Program-made: the position numbers and the translations under genes
In this document: positions 836-58,548 of the stretch, piece after piece
How positions within the stretch are numbered: position 1 is the first letter of the stretch
How the letters are laid out: every line of letters starts with the position of its first letter
Notes under the pieces: generated by a model
The model's database searches: none
The model's input: only the letters and a program-made list of their open reading frames with translations
What the model was told of the DNA's origin: nothing
Source: an uncultured Pseudomonadota bacterium
GTDB lineage: Bacteria > Oederibacteriota > Muellerivitia > Muellerivitales > Muellerivitaceae
Assembly (NCBI GenBank): GCA_963843375.1
Contig: CAWJKT010000004.1
Span: 32,001-96,000 of the forward strand
DNA: 64,000 bases
Reading direction: 5' to 3'

Positions 836-910
836 GGGCGGTTAGCTCAGCGGTAGAGCACTGCTTTCACACGGCAGGGGTCACAGGTTCAAGCCCTGTA
901 CCGCCCACCA
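836..910 (+). tRNA. tRNA-Val(CAC)
   Basis: GGGCGGT/ACCGCCC acceptor stem, TAGCTCAG D arm, anticodon arm CTGCT-TTCACAC-GGCAG, GGTTCAAGCC T arm, encoded CCA. Confidence 0.97.
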
Positions 911-991
911 TCCAGAAACATGGTTAAAACAAGGGCTTAGGAAGTTTCCTAAGTTCCTGTTTCTTTCTGCATGTTCGGATTTTGGTCATTT

Positions 992-1010
992 TGGGACAGT
1001 TCTGGGACAG
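992..1010 (+). promoter_or_regulatory. Putative integrase arm-type sites (TGGGACA x2, 11-bp period)
   Basis: TGGGACAGTTCTGGGACAG between tRNA and integrase; the same motif opens the junction repeats. Confidence 0.7.
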
Positions 1011-1055
1011 CACCTGTGGCGCGTGCGTGTGCGACGCCAACACGGAGACTGTCCT

Positions 1056-2039
1056 GTGGCGACAATCGAAAAACGCGGCAAGTTCTGGCGGGCGAAAATC
1101 CGTCGCCAGGGCGCCCCTGCACAAACCCGGACTTTTGAAAACAAGACCGTGGCCCAGCAATGGGCCCGTAGCATCGAGACCGAGCTCGATAGCGGCATTG
1201 TCATCGATCGGCGCCCGGCCGAGCGCACCACCCTGGCCGAGGTCCTGGAGCGCTATCGGCGCGATGTAACGCCGACCAAGCGCGGCGCGCGGGACGAGAA
1301 CCTGCGCCTCAAGGCCATGGCGCTGCGCCCCTTCGCCCGCATCCGCATGGCCGCGCTCACGAGCTCCTACCTCGCCGCCTACCGTGATCAACGGCTCAAG
1401 GTGGTGTCCGGGGCGACCGTGAATCGCGAGTTCAACGTCCTCTCCCACGCCATCGATACGTCCCGTCGGGAATGGGATATCCATATCCCATTCAACCCCT
1501 GCACCCTGGTGCGGAGACCGCCCCAAGGACGCCCACGGAGCCGACGGCTACAGGGCGATGAGGAACAGCGGCTGCTCGCTCACTGCCGGGCTGCGCGCAA
1601 TCCCTGGCTCGTGCATTTCGTGATACTTGCGCTCGAAACGGGCATGCGGCGCGGAGAGCTGCTGTCCCTAGAATGGGTCAACGTCGACCTGAATAGGCGC
1701 ACAGCGCTGTTGCCCATCACCAAGAACGGCGACAGCCGAGGCGTACCGCTGTCCAGCCGGGCCCTGACTGTCCTGCGCTCGCTTCCGCCCTCGACCACGG
1801 GCCGCGTCTTCGGGGATCTCACCGCTGATGCTGTCAAGCTCTCGTTTCGGCGGGCGACGGTTCGGGCCAGTATCACGGGCCTGCGATTCCATGATCTGCG
1901 CCACGAGGCGACCAGTCGCCTTTTCGAGAAGGGCTTGAACGTCATGGAGGTCGCCTCCGTGACGGGGCATAAGACCCTGCAGATGCTCAAGCGCTATACC
2001 CACCTGAATGCGGTGGATCTTGCCCCCCGGCTCGGTTGA
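1056..2039 (+). CDS. Tyrosine recombinase/integrase, Rci/Hp1-like
   Basis: TGMRRGELL, TKNG, FHDLRHE, TGHK, RYTH catalytic motifs; N-terminal MATIEKRGKFWRAKIRR; GTG start after GGAG. Confidence 0.95.
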   Translation: MATIEKRGKFWRAKIRRQGAPAQTRTFENKTVAQQWARSIETELDSGIVIDRRPAERTTLAEVLERYRRDVTPTKRGARDENLRLKAMALRPFARIRMAALTSSYLAAYRDQRLKVVSGATVNREFNVLSHAIDTSRREWDIHIPFNPCTLVRRPPQGRPRSRRLQGDEEQRLLAHCRAARNPWLVHFVILALETGMRRGELLSLEWVNVDLNRRTALLPITKNGDSRGVPLSSRALTVLRSLPPSTTGRVFGDLTADAVKLSFRRATVRASITGLRFHDLRHEATSRLFEKGLNVMEVASVTGHKTLQMLKRYTHLNAVDLAPRLG

Positions 2040-2073
2040 GCCGGTGACAATAACCCAAGCGTTAGGTTACACT

Positions 2074-2322
2074 ATGCCGACGATTCTGCGATTTCGGGGT
2101 TTGCGGGTGATGATTTACACCCATGATCATTGGCCACCCCATGTGCACGTCATTGCGCCCGAAGCACAGGCCAAGATTGCACTGGGTGAAGCACGACAAC
2201 GTCCTCATGTGCTAGTCAATGATGGACTAACACCGCGACAACTGAACTGGGCCCTGACTGAGATTGATCGCAATCGCGAATTGCTGCTGACGCGCTGGAG
2301 AGAAATTTATGGCGACGCCTGA
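2074..2322 (+). CDS. DUF4160-family protein (putative TA toxin)
   Basis: MIYTHDHWPPHVHV motif; overlaps the DUF2442 gene. Confidence 0.85.
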   Translation: MPTILRFRGLRVMIYTHDHWPPHVHVIAPEAQAKIALGEARQRPHVLVNDGLTPRQLNWALTEIDRNRELLLTRWREIYGDA

Positions 2323-2755
2323 GTGGATCAAGAAGGAGCTGCGCGCAAACTTCGCCAAGGCATCCCGTGCCGGGCGACTGGCTGCGAAGACGGAACCACG
2401 TGCAGCGACCGCGGCGTATCGCGGCCGAGAGCAAGCCCTGCACGTAGAGCTCACGAACGGCGCCAAATTCATCATCCCGGTGAAGCTCATTCCGGAGCTG
2501 CAGAAAGCATCGGTCCGAGATATTTGCAAGGTGGAAGTACTTGGCCGGGGTGGTGGGCTCCATTGGGAGACACTGGATGTGGACATCAGTGTTCCGGGGC
2601 TCATAGCCTCCGTCTTCGAAGGACCGACGTGGCTTGCTGAACTCGGGCGCGTCGGCGGTCAACGGTCCTCAGCCGCAAAAGCGGCAGCGGCACGGAAGAA
2701 CGGACGCAAGGGTGGCCGCCCGCGCCTACGAGATTCTGCGGATTCCAGGGCATAG
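2309..2755 (+). CDS. DUF2442-family protein (putative antitoxin)
   Basis: GLHWETLDVDISVPGL, C-terminal AARKNGRKGGRPR. Confidence 0.85.
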   Translation: MATPEWIKKELRANFAKASRAGRLAAKTEPRAATAAYRGREQALHVELTNGAKFIIPVKLIPELQKASVRDICKVEVLGRGGGLHWETLDVDISVPGLIASVFEGPTWLAELGRVGGQRSSAAKAAAARKNGRKGGRPRLRDSADSRA

Positions 2756-3074: not shown

Positions 3075-3093
3075 GCCCGAGAAGGCCGGCCCA

Positions 3094-4119
3094 TCAGCGA
3101 GTTCGCTCCGGCACTCGAACCGGATCTGGCTTCTTTGGAGCAATTCGGTCTTTGAACGACTGGACGATCTGGTAGGCCAGCTGTTCCTTGTCCGTCATGA
3201 CGGGGGGCATCTCCTGCACAAATTTTCGCACATCGGCCACCAGCTTCGTTTCGCCCTGGCGATCGAGAGTCTTTGCAACTGCGAGCCACCCTGCGACCAC
3301 CGCCTTGCGGGTTTCGACAAGCTTCGCGCGCCCGGGCTCGTTAAACACCGACCCATTGGCGATCCGCTGGGCGACCTCGTCTACCTTCTGGCGCATGGCC
3401 CAGGAGGCTCCGCGCCGCTGTGCCCTCAGCATAGGGTCAAGTGTCTTTCTGCGGTTGGCACCGCGCACCGCTCGCGGAGTCGCGTTGGCGGGAACGCCCT
3501 GCTCCCGCATGCACTGTGCGAAATCCTCTCGCCACAGGCGCAGGGTGCGCTTGTCGATGCGGAGCCGACGACCGTGCAGGCCCTCGGACTTAACGACGAG
3601 GTGGGTATGGGGATGGGGTTGGTCCGTATGCAGCACCATGGCATAGCGGTGTTCTAAGCCGAACCGCTCACGCGCGAACTTCCTCGCCGCCGCCAGGACC
3701 TTCTCGGGTGGCGTCGGTGTCGGCATGGACAGCACAATGTGATGCACCAATTTCACCGATCTGGGCGGTGGCTTGCCTGATCGCGCACGGCGGTACTGAC
3801 CTGATGATAAATCCAGGTGCCAATCGTCTATCAGGCTCTCAAGGCTCTCCCTCCCCTTCAGGGACTCGCCGCCGTCTGTTTCCACCGGCTGCACACCGTT
3901 GCGGCTGATGTATTTTAGGTGCGCGCTGACCGCCCCGAGGTTCGTCGCTCCGCCAGTCACTTTCACCATGACCTCCGGTACCCTGCTGACGGTCCGGGCG
4001 ACCTGGGAGACATGGCTGGGCGCCAGGTGGTCTCTGGATTGGGGGCGGGGCCGTGCCGCACTGAAGATGTCGAGCCAGGGTTCGGCGTCAGGCCGAATCT
4101 GGACGAGTCGCTTACCCAT
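3094..4119 (-). CDS. MOBP/VirD2-like relaxase
   Basis: EVMVKVTGG, HLKYISRNG (motif I Tyr), HHIVLS, LHTDQPHPHTH (3H motif). Confidence 0.9.
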   Translation of the reverse strand: MGKRLVQIRPDAEPWLDIFSAARPRPQSRDHLAPSHVSQVARTVSRVPEVMVKVTGGATNLGAVSAHLKYISRNGVQPVETDGGESLKGRESLESLIDDWHLDLSSGQYRRARSGKPPPRSVKLVHHIVLSMPTPTPPEKVLAAARKFARERFGLEHRYAMVLHTDQPHPHTHLVVKSEGLHGRRLRIDKRTLRLWREDFAQCMREQGVPANATPRAVRGANRRKTLDPMLRAQRRGASWAMRQKVDEVAQRIANGSVFNEPGRAKLVETRKAVVAGWLAVAKTLDRQGETKLVADVRKFVQEMPPVMTDKEQLAYQIVQSFKDRIAPKKPDPVRVPERTR

Positions 4120-4666
4120 AGTTGGTCTCCCAGGTAATGAGCGCGGCGCGAGTGAAGTCGCGCGTGGCCTGCTCAAGGCCCTTGATGGCGGCTCCCATAC
4201 TGCTAAGCTCATGCTGTAGTTCGGTCGGCAACTGACCCGTCGCCAGCGTGTTTCGAGCGAGTTGGTGCGTCACACGAACTGAAACAGCCAGCACCGCAAC
4301 GGACCCTTTGAGGGCCTGGAGCTCCTGCTTCATCAAGGGCGGCCCCCCGGCCACATGGGCCCTGACGAGCCCGGCGATATAGTTGGACGCGGCCGTTCCC
4401 CGATTCGAGGCGCGCCAGCCAATGGCCTGCCGGTCTCCCGGTCGCAACCGGATGGTGATTCGGTCGGTGGCCGGTTCAGTGACCACCTTGGCGAGCAACG
4501 GTGGCCCGTACCGCGCCAGTTCGAGATAGGTGCGGATGGCGAGTATGGCGAGCTGGGATTCGGACAAGCCGCGCGCCTTCGCCAATTCCCCGAAGCGTTT
4601 CTTTTCATCCGGCGTCGGTCGCGCCGTGATTGAAATGAAGCGCCGTTTGCGCAGCTGGGGAGTCAT
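4112..4666 (-). CDS. MobC-like relaxosome accessory protein (RHH)
   Basis: Overlaps the relaxase start; two RHH-like segments (ITARPTPDEK, ITIRLRPGDR). Confidence 0.65.
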   Translation of the reverse strand: MTPQLRKRRFISITARPTPDEKKRFGELAKARGLSESQLAILAIRTYLELARYGPPLLAKVVTEPATDRITIRLRPGDRQAIGWRASNRGTAASNYIAGLVRAHVAGGPPLMKQELQALKGSVAVLAVSVRVTHQLARNTLATGQLPTELQHELSSMGAAIKGLEQATRDFTRAALITWETNYG

Positions 4667-4707
4667 GGCGCGCCCCGCCCGTGTGCCGCACAACGCGGAC
4701 ACCTCGC

Positions 4708-4800: not shown

Positions 4801-5064
4801 TCAGGTTTGGACAGCAGTGGACAGCCGTGGACGGTCTGTCACACCAAATTTGCGTTGGGCTGAATCGCGAGCTATTGATGTAGGCGCATTCAGCACTTCG
4901 CGCGACTTCAGCCATGCGTCGATCTGCTCCTGGGAGAACAGTCGGCGCCTGCCAACTCGAATGCTGGGAGGCAGATCCGCTCCGCGGGCAAGATTGTTGC
5001 GGATGGTTCCGGGGGTCAGGCGAAGTGCTTGGGCAAGCTCATTGATCGTGATGAGGCGAGTCAT
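4801..5064 (-). CDS. AlpA/Xis-like HTH protein (candidate recombination directionality factor)
   Basis: LITINELAQALRLTPGTIRN...PPSIRVGRRRLFSQEQIDAWL. Confidence 0.8.
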   Translation of the reverse strand: MTRLITINELAQALRLTPGTIRNNLARGADLPPSIRVGRRRLFSQEQIDAWLKSREVLNAPTSIARDSAQRKFGVTDRPRLSTAVQT

Positions 5065-5093
5065 ATGCGGCGGTCCTATGAAGGGGCGAGGAC

Positions 5094-6305
5094 TTGCAAG
5101 ACTGCCGCACAGATTCCGGCCTGCGAATTCAGAAAGAGGCAACTAGGGCGAGGACTTTCTGTATGCGACCTCTTGTACTGGATCGAGTTGAAAAAGGACG
5201 GAACTGGCCGGGGATGCGAACCGGCCGGCCCTCCCAGGATTCTGCGCCTCGTCCGCGCGGCCCAAAGGCCAGGCCGACTTTACAACTTTGGGAACATGCA
5301 ACCTGGCGGGCACGCATGCGGGCGTGGTGCAACCAACTGAAGTCAGTGCTACTCGGGACAGACCATGACCCGGGACTCTCACAGGCCTACCGGGTTGTGC
5401 AGTCGGTCGATTGCCCAATCGATAGCCCCGCCACGTGGCTTAGTTGGTGGGACGGAGAGGCGGTACCTCGCCCGACTCACATAGCGGCGGCGAATTTGAT
5501 TTCACCGGGGTCCGTGGAACTTCTCGACCTAACGGAAATGCGCACCCCCGTCTCCAGACACTTTCTCGCGCTCGACATCGTCAACACCCTTTTCCGGCGG
5601 ATCGGACGCCCCAGCGACTATCGCCGAGAGCAGGCCAATCGACTCCTGCACGGATTGAACGATGCATGGGTGTCCTTCTTGGACACCTCACCACCCGGGA
5701 AGACGAATCGCTACAACGTCGAGAATCAGATTGGCAAGTCCACGTTGACACTGCTTGGGACCGTCGAGTTGACGCTAGATCAATTCATCGCGCTGGAGCG
5801 CCTGGGAAACAATCCAGGGCGGTGGGCGATGCCGAGTGAGGCGTTGCTTGAGTACAACTGGCTCGAACCGCTCAGCATCTTTCGATTCCTAGTGCGACTT
5901 GCGGGCTCCAATAAACTATCGCATCCAAAGCTTCTAGAAATGTGGGCCCACGATCTCGCAACAGCGACGATTCTCGTTCGCACGCTCGCCGAGGTAGCAG
6001 ATCGGAGACTTCCTCAGTTCCCGCTCCTCCGAATGGGCGTCGCTGGAGCAATGCACATTTTGGCTTCCATGACATTCTCAACACCGCCAAATATGATCGC
6101 CAGCGAGGATGCCTGCGGAATTGCCATCAATCTCTTTGCCGGCGACGCCCAGTTGGCATTGGCCAATCTGCATGCGGCTCGCGCTTGTTACTACGGCGCG
6201 TTTGCCGACCTCGGGATTTCCGAGCGAGCGCTTCAATCACTCAATGGCACGCATTGGGAGAAGACTTGGGACGGCGCATTCGCAGCTGCACGAGCGAGAA
6301 TCTAG
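5094..6305 (+). CDS. Hypothetical protein
   Basis: 403-aa ORF divergent from the AlpA-like gene; start uncertain. Confidence 0.6.
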   Translation: MQDCRTDSGLRIQKEATRARTFCMRPLVLDRVEKGRNWPGMRTGRPSQDSAPRPRGPKARPTLQLWEHATWRARMRAWCNQLKSVLLGTDHDPGLSQAYRVVQSVDCPIDSPATWLSWWDGEAVPRPTHIAAANLISPGSVELLDLTEMRTPVSRHFLALDIVNTLFRRIGRPSDYRREQANRLLHGLNDAWVSFLDTSPPGKTNRYNVENQIGKSTLTLLGTVELTLDQFIALERLGNNPGRWAMPSEALLEYNWLEPLSIFRFLVRLAGSNKLSHPKLLEMWAHDLATATILVRTLAEVADRRLPQFPLLRMGVAGAMHILASMTFSTPPNMIASEDACGIAINLFAGDAQLALANLHAARACYYGAFADLGISERALQSLNGTHWEKTWDGAFAAARARI

Positions 6306-8437: not shown

Positions 8438-9349
8438 CTAATCCGAATTCAGCGAAAGGCACCACTTCTCAGAGTATGTGGAGCTGTAAGGTTGATTGGG
8501 CACCAGCTTGCGCGAGCCACCGCGCTTTGCGTGCCGCCGCCATTCCGCGAAGGATGGGGAACTGAGACCGCATCGCTCTTCAAGCACGTACCCCGCCCGC
8601 ACTTTGTCAATGTCCGTGCCGTGCTGATCGACTTCGGCGATTATCAACGATAAGTACTCACGGGCATGTGCTTCATATGTATCAATCACATGCTGGATTC
8701 CCCCGCACAGGTCTGCGTCTCTTAGCATATCCAAGAAGGTTCGCCCGAGCGTGGAAACACGGATTCCATGGGGCTCCAATTTCTTGAATGCCCCGTGGTG
8801 ACTACTCCGCGCGAAATGCACCGGCTGCCCCAAGATCTTTTCGAATTTCGAACGCCTCAGTGTCGGGAATCCGGCCTCCACGTACGCTTGGGTATCCGCC
8901 CCAAGATCCTTCTCCATCTGCTCCATTGCAAATCCGCGCCACTGCCGAGGTGCGGGTGATGACGCGAATATCGTATGCGGTATGCGATCAGTCAAACCAT
9001 GAATCGCCATAGCGCTGAGATGCGATAGGTAAGCAAATGGGTCCGCAACACACAGTAGGTCGTGCGCTTCGGGGTCGGTCGTGCCAAGGAGAGTATAGAG
9101 AGATCCGGCCGGAAACCCGCGGACCGGACGAATGACGCCGTGGGCGTCGAGGAAGTTCAGTACCTCGACGAAATGCCGTCGCTCTGGTTCTGGCTTACGA
9201 ACCTCAAGGCGCCTGCCATTAATTCCGCCGGCTCGGTAGACGCCGAAAATCTTCTTACCCAATTCGTACGCGGTAATGGCGCGAGCCTTGAGATCGGAGA
9301 GGGCGAGCGAAGCCGCTTGGGGGAGAGAAATGGTGGATCTGGATGTCAT
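8438..9349 (-). CDS. AbiEi-family antitoxin
   Basis: AYLSHLSAMAIHGLTDRIP, STLGRTFLDML; upstream of abiEii. Confidence 0.8.
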   Translation of the reverse strand: MTSRSTISLPQAASLALSDLKARAITAYELGKKIFGVYRAGGINGRRLEVRKPEPERRHFVEVLNFLDAHGVIRPVRGFPAGSLYTLLGTTDPEAHDLLCVADPFAYLSHLSAMAIHGLTDRIPHTIFASSPAPRQWRGFAMEQMEKDLGADTQAYVEAGFPTLRRSKFEKILGQPVHFARSSHHGAFKKLEPHGIRVSTLGRTFLDMLRDADLCGGIQHVIDTYEAHAREYLSLIIAEVDQHGTDIDKVRAGYVLEERCGLSSPSFAEWRRHAKRGGSRKLVPNQPYSSTYSEKWCLSLNSD

Positions 9350-9383
9350 CTGCTATATGTCCTGAGGACATATAGCAGATGAC
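9345..9383. repeat. Perfect palindrome (19-bp arms) over the abiEi start
   Basis: GTCATCTGCTATATGTCCT-G-AGGACATATAGCAGATGAC. Confidence 0.9.
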
Positions 9384-9435
9384 TTCAAACTCTGTCAAGC
9401 TCCTAGTCGGAATCAGGTCATTGACTTGGGGTTCC

Positions 9436-9480
9436 CGCACCCCTTACAATGCGTCCTAAGGACGCATTGTAAGGGGTGCG
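9436..9480. repeat. Perfect palindrome (22-bp arms) upstream of abiEi
   Basis: CGCACCCCTTACAATGCGTCCT-A-AGGACGCATTGTAAGGGGTGCG. Confidence 0.9.
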
Positions 9481-9756
9481 TAGACCCGAGCTTGAACTCC
9501 TCTCGAGTACTCATAAGCCTTGCGCAAATCATCCTTGTAGGCAACTTCGAAGCTCTAAACCCGCTTCCGCACAGCCGCGTTCGCGGGTTCACATCGCACA
9601 AATTATCAATTAATTCATGGTATTAGATTACAATACTGCTACGCTTTAGCTCCCGTAACAACTGCGCTACAGATTCTTTTTCTGTGATGAAACCTAACCC
9701 AAAAACTCTGTACGGACGCTGGTACGGGTTCCGACGAGATTCTTTTCAAGCCCTGG

Positions 9757-10632
9757 TTGGGAACATTGATGATTTCCCGTTCAATTACCGCCGCTGATAT
9801 TACTCAGTACCTTCAGGACCGGGATGATTTCGATCTTGAACTGTTCGCTCACCGATCATTGCGCGAAAGGGGGTGGGTAACCGCGCTTGGTGGAAGTTAC
9901 CTTGATCCGTTGCAGCCAGGGAAACTGCGGCAATTCGACGTGCGGGGACGACAACAGTTCAACGCCCGCGAGCGCGTGAAAATATTGCGAGAAGTTTATC
10001 TTGCCGTCGAGTGCAAGAGCCTTTCGCCAGAGTTTCCACTTGTAGTTTCGCGAGTTCCCCGGTCGGATATGGAGAATTCCCACGACGTCATCAAGCGTTG
10101 GCATCGTGAGGTACTAAACGATACGGCGTTTGGTGTGCTGAGCACCGGCCCCGAGACGATCCAGCTCTACGCGGCTTCGCAAATGGTGGGCAAATCTGCC
10201 ACGCAGATTCGTTGGCACGAGAACGGAAAGAAGTTAATAGCCTCCGATGCGGAGGGGTACGATAAGTGGTCCCAGGCGATGGCTTCTGCGTCAGAACTTG
10301 TGGATTCAGCTGCTAAGAACCCGCCGGACCCATCAGACCCTACCTTTGCCTTTGTTATGCCGGTGCTCCTTGTAAACGACGGCACGCTATGGGTTGTTGA
10401 CTATGCCGATGATGGCGTACGTCAGGAACCCACTATGGTGAACGATGCGCTTTTGTGGGTAGATCGAGAAGTCAAAATTGCAGGTAGGTACGAGACGAGC
10501 AGCTATCACCTGAGCCATCTGCACATTTACACGCGAAAGGGTTTCACAACTTTCCTAGATCAAATCGGGTCGCCGGGATCGATGCTATTGGAACGCATCT
10601 TCGGGTCGGTTGTTGCTAGAGAACTTAGTTAG
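9757..10632 (+). CDS. Hypothetical protein, PD-(D/E)xK nuclease-like
   Basis: FDLELF...RQFDVRG...LAVECKS. Confidence 0.6.
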   Translation: MGTLMISRSITAADITQYLQDRDDFDLELFAHRSLRERGWVTALGGSYLDPLQPGKLRQFDVRGRQQFNARERVKILREVYLAVECKSLSPEFPLVVSRVPRSDMENSHDVIKRWHREVLNDTAFGVLSTGPETIQLYAASQMVGKSATQIRWHENGKKLIASDAEGYDKWSQAMASASELVDSAAKNPPDPSDPTFAFVMPVLLVNDGTLWVVDYADDGVRQEPTMVNDALLWVDREVKIAGRYETSSYHLSHLHIYTRKGFTTFLDQIGSPGSMLLERIFGSVVARELS

Positions 10633-10982: not shown

Positions 10983-11537
10983 TCCATTATTTTTCTATTC
11001 TTCGGAGCGCCGAAATGGGCGCAATCCCGATGTCGATTATTAATCGACTCCAAAAAGTGGAAGATGGTGTCACCTGGCACAGTTACGGGCAGCCGCCACG
11101 GACCCTTGCGCATAGATGTCGGTTTGCTACCTTCAGCGCGTATCCGACAACTGAGGCAAATATCATGAATGCGATCAGCGCCAAGTGCGGCCACGTGAAG
11201 CGTCGGCTCAACAAGAATTGGCCACTGACCGAAGAGCTCCTGGCGTTCGCGCTCTCTGTCGTCGAACCGGCTGCAGTGAACGACGAATTCTCAAAGTTCT
11301 GCGCCGGCATTGCGGGCAAGTTGAGAAAGGGAACACCGCTCGGCAACTACGAACACCACATCATGGTCAACGTCCTGCTGCTGCACGTACGCCTGAGTAG
11401 CGGCGGAGCCGGCGCGCATCCATCCGTAGATCGCGGGAAAGATGTCACCGGGCCCGCAGACTCCGGGGCTACCAAACCTGCCTAGAATCGTCCGTCTCAC
11501 TCACCGATAGGGAGAGCTCTTTAGGTAATGTTCAGTT

Positions 11538-11591
11538 GCCCTCGGTTTTCGTTGATTTGTAAGGGCTATCAACCCCTTTTCTCACGGCAGG
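11538..11591 (+). repeat. Degenerate partial junction repeat (A0)
   Basis: GCCCTCG..TCGTTGATTTGTAAGG....TTTCTCACGGCAGG is colinear with the junction consensus up to the anticodon stem. Confidence 0.7.
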
Positions 11592-11606: not shown

Positions 11607-11638
11607 CCCTGCTCTCGGACGGCAGGGTCGGCTCACCG
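11607..11638 (+). repeat. Repeat B copy 1
   Basis: CCCTGCTCTCGGACGGCAGGGTCGGCTCACCG. Confidence 0.9.
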
Positions 11639-15863: not shown

Positions 15864-15924
15864 CAAGGGATCTACTGCTTTTCTGAAGGCGGACGCTGGC
15901 GACTGGGGTCACGGTCTATGTCGT

Positions 15925-16096
15925 TGGGACAATCTGGGACAGTCAGCCCATGACGCCAAATGACATCGAATGACATCCCGTGACGCCAAGTGACTGTTGC
16001 GCTTGGCCCTACGCCTCGCATATGGTTGATCTGTAAGGCCCTGACCACCGTTTCACACGGCAGGGGTCACAGGTTCAAGCCCTGTACCGCCCACCA
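15925..16096 (+). repeat. Junction repeat A1 (att-like; tRNA core 16051-16096)
   Basis: TGGGACAATCTGGGACAG + 5 TGAC at 10-bp spacing + exact copy of 865-910. Confidence 0.97.
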
Positions 16097-16370
16097 TCCA
16101 ACACTTTGAAAACAAATGGTTTTCCGCGTTTGTGGGCCAAAACCTTGAACCCAGAAACAGGGATTTGCGAGAATTCCAAGGTCAACCACGTACCGCAACT
16201 CTCTGGTAGGTGCTTCGGCATTCGAGCACGTCCCACTACTCCCGACGGGATTCGGTTCGCGATCCTCAGGACACTCCTGGCAGGTGAACTCCCGCCAAAA
16301 CAGGCGATCACGCGAACACTCTCACCGAAAGAAGTTGCCTTTCATTCTCCTCGATGCATACTGAATGCAT

Positions 16371-17093: not shown

Positions 17094-17126
17094 CCCTGCT
17101 CTCGGACGGCAGGGGCGGCCCAACCG
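17094..17126 (+). repeat. Repeat B copy 2
   Basis: CCCTGCTCTCGGACGGCAGGGGCGGCCCAACCG. Confidence 0.9.
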
Positions 17127-18758: not shown

Positions 18759-18964
18759 GTCCACTTCCCCAGTTTCAGCGAATTGGGCACGTGTCAGTAA
18801 GCTTCGCGGTACCTCACGTGGTTTTGCTCCTGACTGACGTCAATCAGCGGCGTAGTGTCAGCGGCAGCGTCCCAATGATTGTGGCCAGGTAAAGCGCGCG
18901 TCTTCGTCGCAGCAGAGCCGACGTTCTTAGCCGATGATTTTGGTTCAAGAGCCATCTTTGTCGC

Positions 18965-19135
18965 TGGGACAATTTGGGACAGTCAGCTCGTGACGCCGAA
19001 TGACATCGAATTACATCGCGTGACGCCAAGTGACTGTTGCGCTTGGCCCACGCCTCGCATATGGTTGATCTGTAAGGCCCCGACCACCGTTTCACACGGC
19101 AGGGGTCACAGGTTCAAGCCCTGTACCGCCCACCA
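18965..19135 (+). repeat. Junction repeat A2 (core 19090-19135)
   Basis: Same structure as A1; exact 46-bp tRNA core. Confidence 0.97.
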
Positions 19136-19426
19136 TAAAAAATCCCTTGATTGTCAGGTAATTGCCGCGCAATTGGGGCAGCATAGGCCCGCCTCGGTTT
19201 TGGCCGTACGGACACCAGTACGAATTTTTTCGGGCAATTCGTAGAGTTCCGCGCCCCAAAATTGAGCGAGCCAGTGGCGCCAATGCGGACGCGCTCACCG
19301 TCCCCACGGGGACCCATGAACTCGCGCGCACGTCCCTGCCTAGAGATCGATCGATTCGGTTTCGATTCTCGCGCAAGCGAGAAGCCCGCCCAGAGGCGAC
19401 CCGAGGGGCGAAATTAGTTCGCCAAT

Positions 19427-20617
19427 CTATAGTTGCCATTCATAGCCTGGGATAATTCTCCGCATAAATTCATCGAATAACGGAACGGTAAAAGCTGTAT
19501 CACCGTGGTTCGGACTAAAAACCATGCCCTTTGAAATTAACTGATTTCGCGTGGGCCCGAGTGATGTGACTTCGCGCTTTAGAAGTCTGGCGATATCTCC
19601 TGACCTATGCGGCCCTGTACCAAGTTCAGCCATTGCGCGAAGGTACTTCTTCTCACTGGGGGTGAGTCGATCGAATCGAACCCGAAAGAAGCTCTCATCT
19701 AGCGCCGCAACTGCTGACGCCGAGGCGACATTGACGTCGTTCAGAGTAATTGGGGAAGTGCCAGCGGTATCCCAAGCGTGCTTGCCCCATTCTTGCAAAA
19801 AATATGGGTATCCATGAGTTACGCGGACAATATGCAAAAGCGCGTCGTCGTTAATCGCAATGTTTTGAGCTTGAACGGGTCTTGAAATGGCAATCTTGGC
19901 TTCTGGATCACGTAATGCGCCAATCTCGGGAAAGTCGAAAAGCCTTTCCGCATACGATTTTGCACGGCCCATGCGTCCTCGCAGCTGGGGCAATCCAGCA
20001 CCCACCAGCATGACGGGTAGGCGCCGCTGGGCCGTACGGTGAAGAGCAGTTACCAGCGCCGCGAGTTGGTCCTCATCAACGTACTGGAGCTCGTCAATAA
20101 AGATCGCGAGCGCGGTGCCGGCCTCTTTGGCGGCATCGCCGACAACTTCAAGAAGTGCGGCGAGATCGTGCTCCAGGTCGCCATTGTCAGCGAGTCCGGG
20201 CTCTGGCTCGAAGTCGAACCCGACTTCGATGTCCGCATACTTTACTTTCAGCGCACGGGCGAAGCCCGCCAAGCCTCTGAGAGCGCGTTTCGCGATGTCC
20301 TTCGTTTGCTCATTTCTCGACAGTCGAAGCAATGCCTGCCGCAATTCAGGAGCGAGGAGAGCGGGTAACGACCTCTCTTCCGGCGCTTCGATGCGTATGG
20401 TGTGGATGCCGATAGACTCTGCGTCGTCGCGCATTCGATCGAGCAGCACAGTCTTTCCAACACCCCTAAGGCCAACCATAAGGATGCTTTTTGTTGGCAG
20501 TCCCCGGCGCGACCGCTCAACGGCAATTCGAATCGTCTCGCGAAGTTCATCGCGGCCAGCGAGCTCGGGCGGAGGAGTACCGGCCCCAGGAGCGAAAGGG
20601 TTGTCGATAGGATTCAT
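19427..20617 (-). CDS. AAA/P-loop ATPase with probable C-terminal winged helix
   Basis: NPFAPGAG, Walker A GLRGVGKT, Walker B IFIDE, GYPYFLQ. Confidence 0.88.
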   Translation of the reverse strand: MNPIDNPFAPGAGTPPPELAGRDELRETIRIAVERSRRGLPTKSILMVGLRGVGKTVLLDRMRDDAESIGIHTIRIEAPEERSLPALLAPELRQALLRLSRNEQTKDIAKRALRGLAGFARALKVKYADIEVGFDFEPEPGLADNGDLEHDLAALLEVVGDAAKEAGTALAIFIDELQYVDEDQLAALVTALHRTAQRRLPVMLVGAGLPQLRGRMGRAKSYAERLFDFPEIGALRDPEAKIAISRPVQAQNIAINDDALLHIVRVTHGYPYFLQEWGKHAWDTAGTSPITLNDVNVASASAVAALDESFFRVRFDRLTPSEKKYLRAMAELGTGPHRSGDIARLLKREVTSLGPTRNQLISKGMVFSPNHGDTAFTVPLFDEFMRRIIPGYEWQL

Positions 20618-20822
20618 GGGGCGATATTATGCATCTATTACGGAGTTTACAAGAAAACCCTAAACTCACTAATATCCGTACCTTCGACTACCGAGCGTAA
20701 CCTACGTCTTCTCTGTTGCGCATAGTAGTTAAACGGGCGCCCCGGCGTGCAGGCGGCGCCCGATGCAGACGGGCGCAAAACCGAGATCCTTATCAGTTAC
20801 TGCTCATTATGGTTTGCCTCGG

Positions 20823-20993
20823 TGGGACAATCTGGGACAGCCAGCCGATGACGCCAAATGACCTAGAATTACGTCGCGTGACGCTAAGTGACTGTTGCTC
20901 TTGGCACTCCCCTCGCATATCGTTGATTGGTAACGCCCTGACCACCGTTTCACACGGCAGGGGTCACAGGTTCAAGCCCTGTACCGCCCACCA
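20823..20993 (+). repeat. Junction repeat A3 (core 20948-20993)
   Basis: Same structure; exact core. Confidence 0.97.
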
Positions 20994-21119
20994 TAGATTC
21001 AAGCGCTTATAGGCGCTTCTTCATAGCTCTTCACGCTCTTCGATCGAATTTGGGACAGTCTGCCGCACATGCCGCAGACGATTCGAACGGCCATGGACAG
21101 TCGCAAGGGATGATGGGCA

Positions 21120-21530
21120 GTGATTCGGACCCCGGTACCAAGGTGGATCAGCAACGAATTGTGCCGTAACTTTGCCAGGGCTTCGCGCGCCGGCCAGCGA
21201 GCCGCCATGCAAGAGCCCAGAGCTGCGACCGCGCGGTACCAATCTCGCATCGGCGCACTTGAACTTCAGCTGACGAGCGGAGTCACGCTGACAATTCCCA
21301 TCCGGCTGATCCCGGAACTCAGGCGCGTTGCGGCACGCGATATCCGTGCTGTCGAAGTCCTCGGCCGCGGAGGCGGCTTGCACTGGGAGCGACCCAACGT
21401 CGATTTGAGCGTTCCAGGGCTTGTTGCCTTCGTTCTGCGACTCGAGCAAACGGCAGACCGCGACCAGGTGTTGATTTGCCGCGACCCACAGTCGTCGCGG
21501 CTCAGCGGTCGCTCGCGCGGCCTTCTATAA
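21120..21530 (+). CDS. Orphan DUF2442-family protein
   Basis: Paralog of 2309-2755 (GRGGGLHWE..VDLSVPGL); no DUF4160 upstream. Confidence 0.75.
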   Translation: MIRTPVPRWISNELCRNFARASRAGQRAAMQEPRAATARYQSRIGALELQLTSGVTLTIPIRLIPELRRVAARDIRAVEVLGRGGGLHWERPNVDLSVPGLVAFVLRLEQTADRDQVLICRDPQSSRLSGRSRGLL

Positions 21531-23673: not shown

Positions 23674-23679
23674 GCCGCC

Positions 23680-23844
23680 ATGAAAGCGAAAACGCGAGCT
23701 AAGTCGGAGCGACCTCAAAGCTTCACCGAAGGCATTGAACGGGCACTGCGGCGCGCTGCCAGAGATGCGCGCAAGACTGCTCGCATATACGGCACACCCC
23801 TTTACGTTTGGCAGAACGGCAAGGTGGTCGCCAAGAAACCATAA
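23680..23844 (+). CDS. 54-aa basic protein (not in ORF track)
   Basis: MKAKTRAK...YGTPLYVWQNGKVVAKKP; degenerate paralog at 32732-34350. Confidence 0.6.
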   Translation: MKAKTRAKSERPQSFTEGIERALRRAARDARKTARIYGTPLYVWQNGKVVAKKP

Positions 23845-23874
23845 AGACGACCCTACCCGTCACGGTTCGATCGC

Positions 23875-24045
23875 TGGGACAATCTGGGACAGTCAGACCA
23901 TGACGCCAAATGACATCGAATGACATCGCGTGACGCTAAGTGACTGTTGCGCTTGACCCTGCCCTCGCATATCGTTGATCTGTAAGGCCCTGACATCCGT
24001 TTCACACGGCAGGGGTCACAGGTTCAAGCCCTGTACCGCCCACCA
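23875..24045 (+). repeat. Junction repeat A4 (core 24000-24045)
   Basis: Same structure; exact core. Confidence 0.97.
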
Positions 24046-24125
24046 TCTAAAAGCCAGCTAGAACAATCACTTATAGTGTGACCCCGAGCTAGCTGAATTG
24101 GCCTTTCGGAGGGGTTTTGGGACAG

Positions 24126-24161
24126 TACCCAAATCGGGTATGATTCTACCCAATATGGGTA
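24126..24161. promoter_or_regulatory. Tandem palindromic operator candidates
   Basis: TACCCAAATCGGGTA and TACCCAATATGGGTA at the start of the MNT gene. Confidence 0.6.
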
Positions 24162-25187: not shown

Positions 25188-25235
25188 CTACTGAACTGAT
25201 CGCATCAGCCCTTCTCCGGTCGACAAGCTAATGTT

Positions 25236-34317: not shown

Positions 34318-34381
34318 CAGAACGGTAAAGTGGCCGCCAAGAAACCACGAGGACGACCCCCATCTTTCACAGATAGATCGC

Positions 34382-34406
34382 TGGGACAATCTGGGACAGC
34401 CAGCCA
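34382..34406 (+). repeat. Truncated junction repeat (arm pair only)
   Basis: TGGGACAATCTGGGACAGCCAGCCA without TGAC boxes or tRNA core. Confidence 0.85.
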
Positions 34407-34458
34407 CACAACCCCAGGCGGCGCGAATCCATCACGGCAGCCGCAAAGGAAGATCACC

Positions 34459-36775: not shown

Positions 36776-36907
36776 CTCGACTGCTCGAAAGCGGCCGTTC
36801 CCGACCGTCAGCAACGAGTCACGACCGCCATCTCGGCGGAGCTTTCTCCGACTGACGGGTTTCCGGAGGTGAATCCGGCTCTTCCGACCAGAGGCAGTCT
36901 GTACCGC

Positions 36908-37077
36908 TGGGACAATCTGGGACAGTGCGGCCATGACGCCGAATGACAGCGAATTACATCGCGTGACGCTAAGTGACTGTTGCCCTTGGCCCTGCCCTCG
37001 CATATCGTTGATCTGTAAGGCGCTGACCACCGTTTCATACGGCAGGGCTCACAGGTTCAAGCCGTGTACGCCCACCA
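36908..37077 (+). repeat. Junction repeat A6 (core 37033-37077, decayed)
   Basis: Same structure; 3 substitutions and 1 deletion in the core. Confidence 0.95.
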
Positions 37078-37275
37078 TCGAATCCAAGACTTACGACAAA
37101 TCAGCTCCGGAAGTACGGCAAAAGTACGGCATGTTCGGTCCCAGACTGCCTTGGACAAGCATGGACGGGCCTCGACACGAGGTGGTTCGGCGTTATCGCA
37201 CGCTCAAGGCCTGGTCGGAAAAGAATCCGGACCTTGCCGGTCGCTGACGGACGGAAGCTAGCCCCGATTGCGGAT

Positions 37276-56643: not shown

Positions 56644-56907
56644 GTGGACCAGGGGCGTGCACAAAATTGCGAGGCGCTAAGTACTGAATCGCGAAAAACA
56701 GCATTCCGCCGTGGAATCGACAGAATATGGACGCATCAATTCAGGTGGAAGTCTTTGGTGTTGCCGCGATTGTGGGGTGGATTCTCGGCGGTTAGGCACC
56801 CCAAAGTGGTTAATTCCGGATTCCTGGCGCTTAACAATCGCGACGGTCTTGGTGGCACTGGGCATTGCACTGGTGCTGATGTAGCCAGCCCGGGCTTAGG
56901 AAAGTAC

Positions 56908-57603
56908 GTGAAAATTATAGGCCTCATCGGCGGCATGAGTTGGGAATCGACCGCTCTGTACTACCGTCAAATCAACGAGACGATCAAGGAACGCTTGGGC
57001 GGCCTGCATTCGGCCAAGATCATCTTGTACAGCGTGGACTTCCACGACATCGAGCGACTTCAGCATGCGGGTGATTGGGAGGCTGCGGGAGCCATATTGG
57101 CACAAGCGGCTCGTGCGCTAGAAGCTGCAGGCGCCGCTTTCTTGGTTCTGTGCACTAATACGATGCACAAAGTAGCCGCTCGTATCGAGGCTGCAGTCGC
57201 GATCCCGCTTTTGCACATAGTCGACGCAACCGCCGTTGAGATCAAGCAGTCCGGGTACTCAACCGTCGGCTTACTCGGTACGCGAATCACTATGGAGCAA
57301 GATTTCTATCGCGCCCGACTCACACAACGTCACGGCCTTCGAGTCATCGTTCCGGGGCCGGAAGACCGTGAGTCCATTCACCGCATCATCTTCGAAGAAC
57401 TGTGCCTCGGCATCGTCACGGCTGAGTCGCGCGCAGCCTATCGAAAAATCATCGGGACTGTAGCCTCACAAGGCGCGCAGGCGATCATTCTTGGGTGCAC
57501 AGAGATATCGCTTCTGGTTGATCAACAGGACTGTGAAGTTCCGCTGCTTGACACTACTTCGATACACGCTCGCGCCGCCGCCGAAGCTGCGCTCATGAAG
57601 TGA
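56908..57603 (+). CDS. Aspartate/glutamate racemase family
   Basis: GLIGGMSWES, LCTNTMH, LGCTEI. Confidence 0.92.
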   Translation: MKIIGLIGGMSWESTALYYRQINETIKERLGGLHSAKIILYSVDFHDIERLQHAGDWEAAGAILAQAARALEAAGAAFLVLCTNTMHKVAARIEAAVAIPLLHIVDATAVEIKQSGYSTVGLLGTRITMEQDFYRARLTQRHGLRVIVPGPEDRESIHRIIFEELCLGIVTAESRAAYRKIIGTVASQGAQAIILGCTEISLLVDQQDCEVPLLDTTSIHARAAAEAALMK

Positions 57604-57826
57604 CCCAAAACCCTTCGATCCAGCCTGAGATCATCGGGTCCGAAAATGAGCTCCCTGCTTGAACGCCGAACACGTGCCGCCGCCGTGCACCCCACCACCC
57701 TCGACCCAAACCGCAGCGCCCGAAGCTGCTGAGGGCAGTTGGGAATCTAGTATTAATCCTATTATTATAAATGTTGAAAAGGATAATGGATTTGGTATCA
57801 TCCCTTCCGATCCGTAGAACGGACAA

Positions 57827-58078
57827 ATGACCCGCCACATGAGCCACTACGCCCCGGCACCGAAAAAGACCACCAGCGTATCGGTGGCTGAGCCCCTTTT
57901 GGCTGAGGCTAAGGCTCTGGGCATCAATGTTTCGCAGGCGGCCGAAGAAGGCCTCGCGAAGGCCGTCTCCACGAAGCGCGCCGAGCAGTGGATCCAGGAC
58001 AACTGGGACGCAATCCAAAGCTCGAATGAGTACGCGGAGAAGCACGGACTACCGCTCGCCAAGTACCGGATGTTCTAA
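57827..58078 (+). CDS. ccdA: CcdA-family antitoxin
   Basis: LLAEAKALGINVS...WIQDN...HGLPLAKYRMF. Confidence 0.9.
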   Translation: MTRHMSHYAPAPKKTTSVSVAEPLLAEAKALGINVSQAAEEGLAKAVSTKRAEQWIQDNWDAIQSSNEYAEKHGLPLAKYRMF

Positions 58079-58378
58079 ATGGCGAGATTCAGTGTCTACC
58101 CTAATCCTGAGGGCGACGGCTACCTGCTTGATGTTCAGGCAGACATTGTGAGGCATCTCAACACGCGAGCAGTTGTGCCCCTGATGCCCCTGGGGAAGGC
58201 ACCGAAGCCGGCCACACGTCTCAACCCGCTGCTCGTAATCGACGACATCGAGCATACGATGCTCACGCAGTACCTGGCAGCAGTTCCAATCAGTGTTCTC
58301 AAGCGCGAGACCCTGAATGTGGCGGATCGCAGGGACGACATCGCCAACGCGATCGATTTGCTACTGCAAGGCTCCTAA
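58079..58378 (+). CDS. ccdB: CcdB-family toxin
   Basis: YLLDVQAD, TRAVVPL, RLNP, AIDLL. Confidence 0.9.
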   Translation: MARFSVYPNPEGDGYLLDVQADIVRHLNTRAVVPLMPLGKAPKPATRLNPLLVIDDIEHTMLTQYLAAVPISVLKRETLNVADRRDDIANAIDLLLQGS

Positions 58379-58403
58379 GTCCATGCCGTAGAACTTCGCT
58401 CTG

Positions 58404-58548
58404 TGACGCGAAGTGCCATCGAATGACACTACCTGATGCCAATGGACTGTTGTGCATGGCCCTCCCCTCGCATAGCGTTGATCTGTAATGCCCTGACCAC
58501 CGTTTCACACGGCAGGGGTCACAGGTTCAAGCCCTGTACCGCTCCCCA
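58404..58548 (+). repeat. Junction repeat A7 / terminal attR (core 58503-58548)
   Basis: Decayed TGAC region, no TGGGACA pair; core 44/46 identical to the tRNA. Confidence 0.92.

Follow-up and report, generated by a model that had tools for sequence, protein, structure and literature searches.

A likely tandem accretion array of integrase-less units behind an integrative mobilizable element at a tRNA-Val gene

Direct repeats of a tRNA-Val 3' half divide a 57.6-kb region into units

We analysed a stretch of 64,000 nucleotides (the window; contig CAWJKT010000004.1 of assembly GCA_963843375.1) from an uncultured soil bacterium, in which an array of 57.6 kb extends from a tRNA-Val gene to position 58548. 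The array consists of units that are bounded by direct repeats of the tRNA 3' half, and a single integrase gene lies in the first of them. In what follows, G numbers denote other genomes or metagenome-assembled genomes (MAGs), L numbers denote loci on these or on metagenome contigs, and X numbers denote soil runs.

The tRNA-Val gene, with anticodon CAC, lies at 836-910 on the + strand and contains the core of the left attachment (att) site, attL. It was identified by ARAGORN, by the Rfam tRNA model (66.9 bits) and by alignment, and it is the single tRNA that ARAGORN reports in the window; Rfam also shows a tRNA only. To locate copies of its 3' part we searched the window with a 36-nt piece of it, ungapped and with up to 3 mismatches, for which the expectation was 0.00 in 100 shuffles. 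The piece was found without mismatch at 875, 16061, 19100, 20958 and 24010, with one mismatch at 28653, and with two at 58513. A further copy at 37033, which has a 1-nt deletion and substitutions, was missed by this search and recovered by alignment and BLAST. Seven copies of the 46 nt at the tRNA 3' end follow the gene, all of them direct repeats, which gives eight cores counting the tRNA, with start-to-start spacings of 15186, 3039, 1858, 3052, 4643, 8390 and 21470 nt. The repeats and their spacings had been listed in an earlier reading of this DNA from its letters and open reading frames (the sequence-only reading), and search, alignment and BLAST all bear them out. The block of identity to the tRNA runs from the anticodon loop (TTTCACAC, from 865) to the CCA end. 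Counted outward along the array, the cores have 0, 0, 0, 0, 1, about 4, and 2 mismatches to the tRNA.

Each of the seven copies is joined to a conserved P arm ahead of it, and arm and tRNA 3' half together form the right end of a unit. By alignment and BLAST we placed these junctions, all on the + strand, at 15915-16097 (A1, unit 1), 18955-19136 (A2, unit 2), 20813-20994 (A3, unit 3), 23865-24046 (A4, unit 4), 28506-28689 (A5, unit 5, with 1 mismatch in the tRNA half) and 36898-37079 (A6, unit 6b as defined below, with substitutions and the 1-nt deletion). The most decayed copy, A7 (58404-58548), forms the distal end of the array; it keeps the proximal part of the arm, lacks the distal GGGACA part, and has 2 mismatches in its core.

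The sequence-only reading had divided the array into seven units. Its picture of discrete, att-bounded units without an integrase stands, but it did not notice that unit 1 is split and unit 6 fused, nor that an insertion sequence (IS) is present. Unit 1 is divided into 1a and 1b by a degenerate arm end with a core-like TTTCTCACGGCAGG (11537-11591, + strand), and the first copy of a short motif that we call B (11609-11625) lies 18 nt further. A composite of arm, core-like sequence and B recurs in G230 (9642-9817), there with a near-full arm. Within unit 6, the first 46 bp of an arm, including two GGGACA sites, are fused to a left end like that of unit 4 (34358-34403, + strand; assigned by repeat family and BLAST), and 34388-34783 is 72.7% identical to 21047-21444 at the left end of unit 4. 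Judged from these sequences, unit 6 is two units, 6a and 6b, fused by a deletion between two GGGACAG motifs, one in a P arm and the other in the P' arm that came next. An IS256-family element (32865-34317, + strand) is inserted in the end of unit 6a, with its transposase at 33000-34259 (PF00872, 424.9 bits). Since unit 1 and unit 6 both split, we put the array at about nine units.

The P arm ahead of each core is conserved motif by motif

The conserved, non-coding arm ahead of each core copy is about 135 bp long, and arm plus core are 82-94.5% identical in pairwise comparisons over 146-194 bp. The sequence-only reading had noticed this block and its shortening in the last copy, but gave it a length of about 125 bp. 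Every full arm begins with two GGGACA repeats about 10 nt apart. In the middle of the arm lie five TGA(C/T) repeats in exact 10-nt phase, and the arm also holds a block that resembles binding sites for integration host factor (IHF), CCTCGCATA..GTTGAT..GTAAGG.

Mean column conservation was calculated from an alignment of 40 distinct full arms, taken from the window and from 26 other loci. Conservation was 0.94 in the arm-site block, 0.91 in the IHF-like block and 0.94 in the core; in the middle of the arm it was 0.935 for the TGA(C/T) repeats compared with 0.749 for the remaining columns. Outside, it was 0.44 upstream of the arm and 0.48 downstream of the core. The arm motifs look maintained by selection, and the arm looks like a complete, working P arm. 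From the layout of lambda/HP1-type sites, we infer that the motifs serve for integrase arm binding, for an excisionase or bending protein, and for IHF. The classification of tRNA-targeting integrases in Williams 2002 includes a lambda/HP1-type, anticodon-loop sublocation. The layout found here is that of an arm-dependent, tRNA-targeting integrase, with identity that extends from the anticodon loop through to the 3' end and GGGACA repeats on both sides of the core.

Three further observations concern the arm. A 54-aa basic open reading frame (ORF; 23680-23844) adjoins the arm of unit 4, and homologous DNA is found at 32730-32864 plus 34318-34359 and at L011:5529-5842. Present just upstream of the arm in three units, this ORF behaves like an extension of the arm, and it has no family match in Pfam, NCBIfam or PHROGs. 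In L056 (G031:C118:1671-1983) and L018 (1733-2042), the core is preceded by a different conserved block of ~270 bp, 70% identical between the two loci, which may be a second arm type. Finally, CATGCCGTAG in the distal part of the last arm (58390-58405) is an inverted near-copy of GTACGGCA, the left-end repeat described below for unit 7.

Unit 1a has the gene content of an integrative mobilizable element

Unit 1 opens with a P' arm (911-1022, + strand). It contains the palindrome CTTAGGAAGTTTCCTAAG (936-953), which resembles a terminator and has a T-rich run behind it, and GGGACAG twice in direct orientation (993-999 and 1004-1010). This layout recurs in L018, L025 and L040, and also in integrase-less units of L019, L022, L030 and L049. 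The P' arm is followed by the gene for a tyrosine integrase of the HP1/phage type (1023-2036, + strand; PF00589, 102 bits; phrog_1, 201 bits). Its best matches are generic tyrosine-recombinase, XerA/XerC and HP1-type, and its best solved relative is the HP1 integrase (PDB 1aih, E 2.3e-11). None of these is of the Rci kind named in the sequence-only reading, with the limit that no search used a model or sequence of Rci. Against the integron-integrase model TIGR02249 it scores 23.1 bits, where the cut-off is 265. Amino-acid identity is 97% to G031 over the first 108 residues and 98.6% to G230 over residues 56-338.

We found no second integrase in the window. In a tblastn search with the integrase the next best hit had E=1.4, and when the complete assembly was searched in six frames with PF00589 at E<=1, the window was matched at 1545-2009 only. 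The other contigs of the assembly gave 14 further PF00589 matches, six of which also match this integrase, at 33-38% identity. On both searches, the sequence-only reading was right that the array has a single integrase, and units 2-7 contain no decayed ones.

Directly after the integrase gene lies a pair composed of a DUF4160 (DhiT-like toxin) gene and a DUF2442 gene (2008-2755, + strand; PF13711 and PF10387; NF048015 DhiT, 36 bits, below the cut-off of 100), which is probably a toxin-antitoxin stabilising module. Three genes on the - strand encode a MobA/VirD2-type relaxase (3094-4212; PF03432, 55.5 bits; MobP1, 90 bits, below the cut-off of 200), a NikA-like protein (4112-4702; PF21983, 24 bits, below the cut-off), and an excisionase-family protein with a helix-turn-helix (HTH) domain, HTH_17 (4801-5142; PF12728, 41.8 bits; TIGR01764, 28.3 bits with a cut-off of 28.8). 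Unit 1a also encodes AbiEii, and a 403-aa ORF (5094-6302) has no match in Pfam, NCBIfam or PHROGs. We scanned 83 non-overlapping ORFs of the window against Pfam, and selected ones against NCBIfam and PHROGs as well. Mating-pore families (type IV secretion system) were found in none of the 83. With an integrase of its own, an excisionase-like HTH protein and a relaxase, all above the Pfam cut-offs, and without mating-pore genes, unit 1a is by annotation an integrative mobilizable element (IME). Beside AbiEii, two 45-bp near-perfect palindromes (9342-9386 and 9436-9480; 93% and 98% self-complementary) lie just upstream of ORF 8438-9349.

The other units carry toxin-antitoxin and defence-like cargo and no integrase

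The units of the window measure 1.9-21.5 kb and hold 2 to about 20 genes on both strands. In units 2-7, the Pfam scan of the ORFs revealed no relaxase or recombinase family, the IS256-family transposase aside. The cargo of units 1b-6b includes toxin-antitoxin pairs of the MazF-type, Phd/PIN, nucleotidyltransferase and DUF4160/DUF2442 kinds, together with an AAA ATPase (the Pfam match at 19427-20617 in unit 3), a SEC-C protein, TetR regulators and an arylsulfotransferase. The left end of unit 4 (20995-21530, + strand), which belongs to a family of integrase-less units described below, consists of a hairpin, one GGGACAG (21052) and a DUF2442 gene (21120-21530). Unit 4 also contains the SEC-C protein, a MazEF-like pair and the 54-aa ORF. 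Unit 7 (37080-58403, + strand; described from Pfam and a left-end scan) is 21.5 kb long, has a higher GC content, and carries GTACGGCA repeats at its left end instead of GGGACA. It encodes TauE, a SoxA/TsdA-type cytochrome c, resistance-nodulation-division (RND) efflux, a pyridine-nucleotide disulphide oxidoreductase, cytochrome bd, OsmC and a racemase, with CcdAB at its end.

After the CCA, most units begin with a short palindrome that has CTTA at its centre and often a T-rich run behind it. We interpret the palindrome as the terminator of the tRNA gene, in which case each unit would once have lain directly behind a functional tRNA. Of 50 distinct left ends, 22 have a GGGACA motif within 150 bp of the core, 7 of them more than one. 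Among the left ends of the window, units 1, 4 and 5 have such a P' site and units 2, 3, 6a and 7 do not. Tandem GTACGGCA repeats take the place of GGGACA at 37100-37135 in the window and at the left ends of L041, L044 and L018. We considered these repeats as arm sites of a second integrase family and rejected the idea because such units mostly still end in GGGACA-type arms.

The ORF at 29918-30631 contains a run of 12-nt GGCTACGG-type repeats (30362-30457) that encode a Gly-Tyr-rich stretch, and it has weak matches to outer-membrane beta-barrel and KRTAP families.

Arms, units and modules recur in other genomes in different orders

The arm has no copy elsewhere in the source assembly, and it is present in 0 of 30 other genomes of the family to which the assembly is assigned. 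A pattern scan of one genome per species identified G031 and G032, two MAGs of the Steroidobacteraceae. In G031 the order is gltX, tRNA-Val and integrase gene, and seven arm copies lie on three contigs that break at arms. In G032 an intact tRNA-Val is followed directly by an integrase-less DUF2442 unit, and the best integrase match of this genome is only 33% identical. Metagenome contigs yielded 38 loci with the arm, many of them with two to four arms. In the family of G031, 11 of 301 sampled genomes had an arm match; two candidates were scored per genome in this sample, so copy numbers are floors. The array contig of G230 starts, cut, with the same integrase and has fewer units than the window. 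In G310, two units of about 1.2 kb stand behind a tRNA-Val, and the 40 kb examined contain no homologue of the integrase. G180 has three arm matches. Arrays with several arms are found on contigs of 988 kb (L045, four arms), 1.02 Mb and 309 kb. On its 1.02-Mb contig, G269 (L059-L061, G269:C2:690001-750000) has five arm matches over 18 kb, and the 60 kb examined there contain neither a tRNA nor a homologue of this integrase.

To learn how often units carry an integrase, we surveyed 22 complete units of 608-8675 bp from 17 non-redundant relative loci. Three have one, detected by PF00589 in L018 and L040 and as two tblastn pieces in L025. Each occupies the proximal end of its locus, after an intact tRNA-Val in L025 and L040 and after a core copy without a detectable full tRNA in L018. 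No integrase or fragment of one was found in the other 19 complete units. Their cargo is mostly toxin-antitoxin pairs (BrnTA, VapBC, Phd/PIN, CcdB, Zeta, Gp49), joined by Fic, AAA/STAND ATPases, regulators and hydrolases.

Two families of integrase-less units can be distinguished by their left ends. In L022/L030/L052, L049 and L019, the core, palindrome and GGGACA are arranged as in unit 1, and are followed by ATAACCCAAGCGTT and the DUF4160/DUF2442 pair. In the window ATAACCCAAGCGTT follows the stop codon of the integrase gene, and the segment from about 1020 to 2048 is cleanly absent from those loci. On this alignment, some integrase-less units are clean int-deletion derivatives of an integrase-bearing element. 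The second family, in which a core, a hairpin and one GGGACAG precede DUF2442, comprises units 4 and 6b (73% identical to each other), L009 in G031 (75-86%), L055, the tRNA-adjacent unit of G032, and G180. Identities among the copies from the window, L009, L055, G032 and G180 are 75-88%. Because this integrase-less architecture is common to copies that are only 73-88% identical, it is old and maintained.

The sequence-only reading had proposed that relatives would vary in the content and order of their units, and this is what we observed. Window positions 23678-25264, which cover the end of unit 4, A4 and the start of unit 5, are 96.2% identical to L011 in G031, and the remainder of both adjoining units differs. 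Another unit of G031 also contains the end of unit 5 (96.1%), there at a distance from the arm that is 2.4 kb greater. Behind the MazEF module comes unit 5 in the window and a left end of the unit-7 type in G230. The units downstream of a Fic unit found in L019 and L045 (95.4%) likewise differ, as do those upstream of a DhiTA unit in L019 and L030. The modules common to the window and G031 are 96.2%, 96.1%, 90.8% and 89.6% identical, and the chromosomal flanks are 90% and 78-83% identical. Two of these four modules are closer (96%) than the flanks, which hints at exchange after the hosts diverged.

A 17-nt motif recurs inside the units, usually 0.55-1.55 kb after a core

The motif B is 17 nt long, reads CTGCT-CTCGGAC-GGCAG in the window, and has the consensus CTGCYC.C..ACRGCAG. 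Around a different 7-nt centre it repeats the two halves of the anticodon stem of the tRNA (CTGCT...GGCAG, frequently with GGG added behind). The window has four copies on the + strand. Site 1 (11609-11625) follows the degenerate arm and core-like sequence within unit 1, and site 2 (17096-17112) lies 999 nt after A1. Site 3 (25238-25254) follows A4 at 1192 nt and stands immediately behind a nucleotidyltransferase gene pair, and site 4 (29447-29463) lies 758 nt after A5, directly behind a Phd/PIN pair; the homology to L011 ends at the former and that to L012 at the latter. These four are the only copies in the 4-Mb assembly, and a control with the reversed pattern gave 0. By arithmetic, about 0.02 matches would be expected by chance in 532 kb on both strands.

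We counted 16 distinct copies of B in the window, nine loci and G230, and the motif is confined to arrays of this kind. Outside the window they are at L011:7208, L012:6285, L019:7448, L022:1215, L025:1623 and 5928, L030:5455, L039:1061, L049:1600 and 3123, and L064:4556 and 9801. In all loci scanned on both strands, B is on the same strand as the att sites, and the copies of G230 come from the same kind of scan. We tabulated 14 spacings, leaving out duplicates, and in these B follows an att core or the tRNA at a distance of 0.55-1.55 kb. In the cases with checked genes, it stands directly behind the integrase gene (L025), the DUF4160/DUF2442 pair or another toxin-antitoxin pair. Outside this range are 11609 and the copy at 9801 in G230, both ~18-20 nt after a degenerate arm with core-like sequence, and the copy at 3123 in L049, which is 2.8 kb from the only arm of that locus. 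Among 37 left ends long enough for the test, 10 have B within 1.7 kb of the core. The G269 stretch has three looser matches to B, one of them on the opposite strand, and these are perhaps unrelated.

B also coincides with breaks in homology. We collected the endpoints of high-scoring segment pairs (HSPs) of >=250 bp between non-redundant loci; of the 88 endpoints off contig ends, 29 fall at att sites and 9 at B, where the B windows make up 0.67% of the sequence and the HSPs are not mutually independent. Eight of the nine endpoints at B are right-hand ends, and the sequence right of B differs between genomes that are alike on its left. The loop of B varies (CTCGGAC, CGCGGAC, CGCAGAC, CACCGAC and others), and its 5-bp stem is invariant, with no compensatory change. 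A core-like TTTCACACGGCNGG lies about 35 nt upstream of 6 of the 16 copies, and a P arm is fused to it in the window and in G230.

Two origins of B were considered and rejected. As a piece of another tRNA it would be odd, because several loops lack the T at the U33 position, there is no T-arm, and the assembly has no such tRNA. A genome-wide repetitive extragenic palindrome does not fit either, with 4 of 4 assembly matches inside the array and none for the reversed control. The leading idea is that B is a secondary integrase site. A bolder version, in which the array is a two-site gene-shuffling platform with the integrase exchanging strands at B or at TTTCACACGGCNGG, we regard as speculative and unlikely. 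If it were true, B, as a second site that has no arm, would resemble the attI of integrons: a landing pad through which a single phage-type integrase with a tRNA target could exchange cargo among integrase-less units. The motif itself is a new detail, and it offers a concrete lead on the exchange of cargo inside such elements.

Contigs from soil runs cover individual junctions

Logan contigs of soil runs were examined, of which the best run contains 0.80 of the sampled words, and four runs were compared with the array sequence. Contigs of runs X1 and X2 join 32864 to 34318, with the IS256-family element absent, and because these contigs come from two soil runs, an IS-free form exists in nature. 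A 298-nt contig of run X3 spans 18981-19278, from A2 into unit 3. One 510-nt contig of run X5, which belongs to a different study, joins 28604 to 23962, the junction expected of a circle or a tandem copy of unit 5. In X1, 34400 is joined to 21399, and one side of this joint has 46 nt; it probably reflects a variant start of unit 6b. Loose ends in X1 and X3 that place a tRNA 5' half before the core at 16051 were set aside as unassignable, since the true tRNA locus was not within the compared sequence and shares 50 identical nt with that copy.

The chromosomal flanks resemble those of Steroidobacteraceae

To the left of the array lies the N-terminal part of a class I Glu/Gln-type aminoacyl-tRNA synthetase-like gene (gltX/gluQ-like; 251-796, - strand; PF00749, 133.6 bits). 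The left flank with the tRNA is 90% and 88% identical to two Steroidobacteraceae MAGs, and the left flank of G031 has 90-91.7% nucleotide identity to the window. The right flank, from 58551 onward, matches G031:C118 at 78-83%. The GC content of units 1-6 (about 53-61%) is lower than that of the right flank (62-71%).

When flanks 1-910 and 58549-62000 were compared with G011, G031 and G032, identity to the Steroidobacteraceae MAGs was 88-90% on the left and 78-83% on the right. A genome labelled 'same genus' has no flank DNA in common with the window contig and shares the tRNA only (82%). Because the flanks are Steroidobacteraceae-like at 88-90% and the 'same genus' genome shares no flank DNA, the taxonomic placement of the bin, or the membership of this contig in it, appears doubtful.

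Discussion

We think it likely that the 57.6-kb region is a tandem accretion array at one att site, with an IME first and then integrase-less units that resemble cis-mobilizable elements (CIMEs). Repeated site-specific integration into the anticodon loop of tRNA-Val would have built the array. Unit 1a looks like a live IME: it encodes an arm-dependent HP1-type integrase and an HTH protein of the excisionase family, a MobP-like relaxase and its NikA-like partner, as well as a toxin-antitoxin pair. Units 1b, 2, 3, 4, 5, 6a, 6b and 7 would be its non-autonomous relatives, none of which appears to encode a recombinase (the IS256 transposase aside). Each unit would have brought its own tRNA 3' half and terminator-like hairpin, some of them also a P' arm site, and would end in a full P arm made up of two putative Int arm sites, five phased sites for a bending/directionality protein and the IHF-like block.

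Movement could follow two routes. The integrase might recombine attL with a more distal arm to give a composite circle, and thereby mobilise the units in cis, or integrase and excisionase provided in trans might excise and integrate the units one at a time. Newcomers would enter at the tRNA and push older units outward, and the gradient of core decay with distance fits this order. The many toxin-antitoxin pairs would stabilise the array. We infer the action of the integrase on these sites, the motif roles and the direction of growth.

The discrete att-bounded units without integrase, the conserved arm motifs, the recurrence of the system with reordered modules, and the int-deletion derivatives are together consistent with non-autonomous units that an integrase encoded elsewhere would serve. 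The sequence-only reading had anticipated this in describing non-autonomous cassettes that depend on an integrase acting in trans. That view gains from the same evidence, but it must be limited in that many units have no P' site and are maybe moved only with their neighbours.

Several observations weigh against the accretion model or narrow it. More than half of the distinct left ends (28 of 50) have no GGGACA within 150 bp, and units without a P' site may often not be individually excisable and be movable only with neighbours. The only hint of circles or excision is the single 510-nt contig, which has a depth of 3.4, 82 nt on one side and 34 nt that are ambiguous, and a different unit order in another strain explains its 28604/23962 joint equally well. 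The sharing of units with G031, G032 and G180 could be largely vertical, as unit identities of 73-88% compare with 78-90% for the flanks. Concerted evolution could contribute to the similarity of arms within one array, and homologous recombination between the ~180-bp repeats could shuffle units without an integrase. In addition, the source assembly is a MAG with 80% completeness and 4% contamination.

In a different account, the units are dead remnants of islands that once bore an integrase and each lost it; the arms are out of use and the array is a fossil record. A published three-step model for tandems, consisting of integration, decay to a CIME and new integration (PMC5704250), describes just such a history. 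It would also suit the greater decay of the distal copies, the deleted junction between 6a and 6b, the IS in unit 6a, and the P' arm sites missing from more than half of the left ends. Unused DNA would not be expected, however, to keep its motif columns at 0.91-0.94 over 40 copies against 0.44-0.75 in spacers and flanks. The integrase-less architecture of the left ends is common to copies only 73-88% identical and is hence old and kept, and no integrase fragment remains in the 19 integrase-less units of relatives or in units 2-7 of the window. We therefore place this account on the unlikely side.

Shuffling driven by RecA would need no integrase at all. The ~180-bp repeats would act as portable homology, and DNA uptake followed by homologous recombination would add, remove and reorder units. 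In favour of this, identity between the repeats is 82-94.5% across some 180 bp, with a 46-nt block perfect in five copies, the fusion of 6a and 6b was made by a microhomology deletion between GGGACAG motifs, and 50 of the 88 HSP endpoints off contig ends lie away from att sites. What such shuffling leaves unexplained is why motifs of a protein-binding type are conserved rather than whole arms, and why each unit has a terminator-like hairpin right behind its tRNA copy. In G230, the switch from an A4-like arm (94.8%) to a unit-7-like left end falls at the core, which fits a core crossover and is not decisive. We consider this explanation quite improbable. That the array is an assembly artefact, with islands of co-existing strains strung together via the repeat in a metagenome assembly, is highly improbable. 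The source is indeed a MAG, the short-read MAG of a relative breaks its contigs exactly at arms, and the soil runs contain only 30-80% of the sampled words. Against this, the contig measures 564,527 bp in an assembly of 32 contigs, and the repeat copies differ mutually at many positions. Independent assemblies reproduce unit 4/A4/unit 5 (L011, 1587 bp, 96%) and A5/unit 6 (L012, 949 bp), the X3 contig spans A2 into unit 3, and multi-arm arrays lie elsewhere on contigs of 988 kb, 1.02 Mb and 309 kb.

The locus would be a well-preserved natural example of how one integrase can support many integrase-less passengers. It makes the idea of CIMEs and accretion testable outside streptococci and Dehalococcoides, and the motif map is clear enough for the direct design of binding and recombination assays. 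The array is rich in toxin-antitoxin and defence-like genes and includes a 21-kb block of sulfur, respiration and efflux functions. It thus contributes to strain-level variation in an abundant, uncultured soil lineage.

The concept that best describes the locus was already available, and the idea of the sequence-only reading is not new: tandem, att-flanked units without an integrase correspond to CIMEs and accretion as set out in PMC5704250 and PMC3146451. According to PMC5704250, CIMEs are elements without integration and transfer genes that have kept attL and attR. In the window, att sites of one system bound the units at one target gene, and the units behind the IME have no integration or transfer genes. 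A cognate autonomous element is present as unit 1a, and the same integrase stands beside tRNA-Val in G031, L025 and L040 and at the cut start of G230. One parallel described there is the ICESt1/ICESt3 family of Streptococcus thermophilus, integrative and conjugative elements (ICEs) in which an autonomous element is in tandem with att-flanked reduced units at one target gene, and such a composite can be excised and transferred in cis (PMC5704250). The array described here differs in having eight or so non-autonomous units rather than one or two, and these are small and rich in toxin-antitoxin genes. Each junction has a full ~135-bp P arm with motifs conserved across genomes, and the B motif comes in addition. 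The putative helper is an IME with a relaxase rather than an ICE.

The ssrA islands of Dehalococcoides are similar in that many islands lie in tandem downstream of one small-RNA gene, separated by direct repeats of its 3' end (PMC3146451). That study reports 15 ssrA islands without an integration module, proposes that they are cis-mobilizable, and notes that extra conserved sequence adjoins the repeat (PMC3146451). In Dehalococcoides the recombinase is the serine recombinase DsiB, the repeat is 20 bp with a 15-bp adjacent motif, and the target is the T-loop of the tmRNA (PMC3146451); here we find a tyrosine integrase, a 46-nt tRNA half with a ~135-bp arm, and an anticodon-loop target. The tycheposons of Prochlorococcus are likewise tRNA-targeted cargo elements that are stacked with partial tRNA copies between them, and newcomers push older ones into the island, where remnants with extra partial tRNAs stay (10.1101/2020.12.28.424599). 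As described in the same source, tycheposons carry integrase and replication modules, and their degenerate fragments lack clear boundaries, unlike the integrase-less units with complete arms seen here (10.1101/2020.12.28.424599). In unit 1 we found no replication-family match in Pfam, NCBIfam or PHROGs, and the hosts and integrases of tycheposons are unrelated to those here.

Elements of the staphylococcal cassette chromosome (SCC) type are moved by serine recombinases (Ccr), which act in trans on short repeats without arms in a protein-coding target gene. Their composite islands at rlmH in staphylococci offer a parallel, since ccr-less pseudo-SCC elements stand in tandem with a recombinase-bearing cassette and share its attachment repeats (10.1101/336396).

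The array also recalls integrons, including sedentary chromosomal arrays: one recombinase gene heads a directional array, a conserved site ends each unit, toxin-antitoxin genes are many, and unit content varies between relatives. The sequence-only reading had called the array integron-like, a classification that the integrase (23 bits against a cut-off of 265), the multi-gene units on both strands and the arm-plus-core attL/attR junctions contradict. Integron cassettes are mostly promoterless single ORFs served by a common promoter, whereas the units here are multi-gene, lie on both strands and have their own expression signals. There is no IntI and no attI/Pc expression platform, and the junctions look like double-stranded arm-plus-core att sites rather than folded attC hairpins. 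With no IntI and with multi-gene units on both strands, the array is not an integron. It adds to the textbook picture of accretion the number and small size of the passengers, the seemingly selected arm motifs, the clean int-deleted architecture and the B motif. Taken together, we conclude that the array is a large, clean example of a known process and not a new kind of integron.

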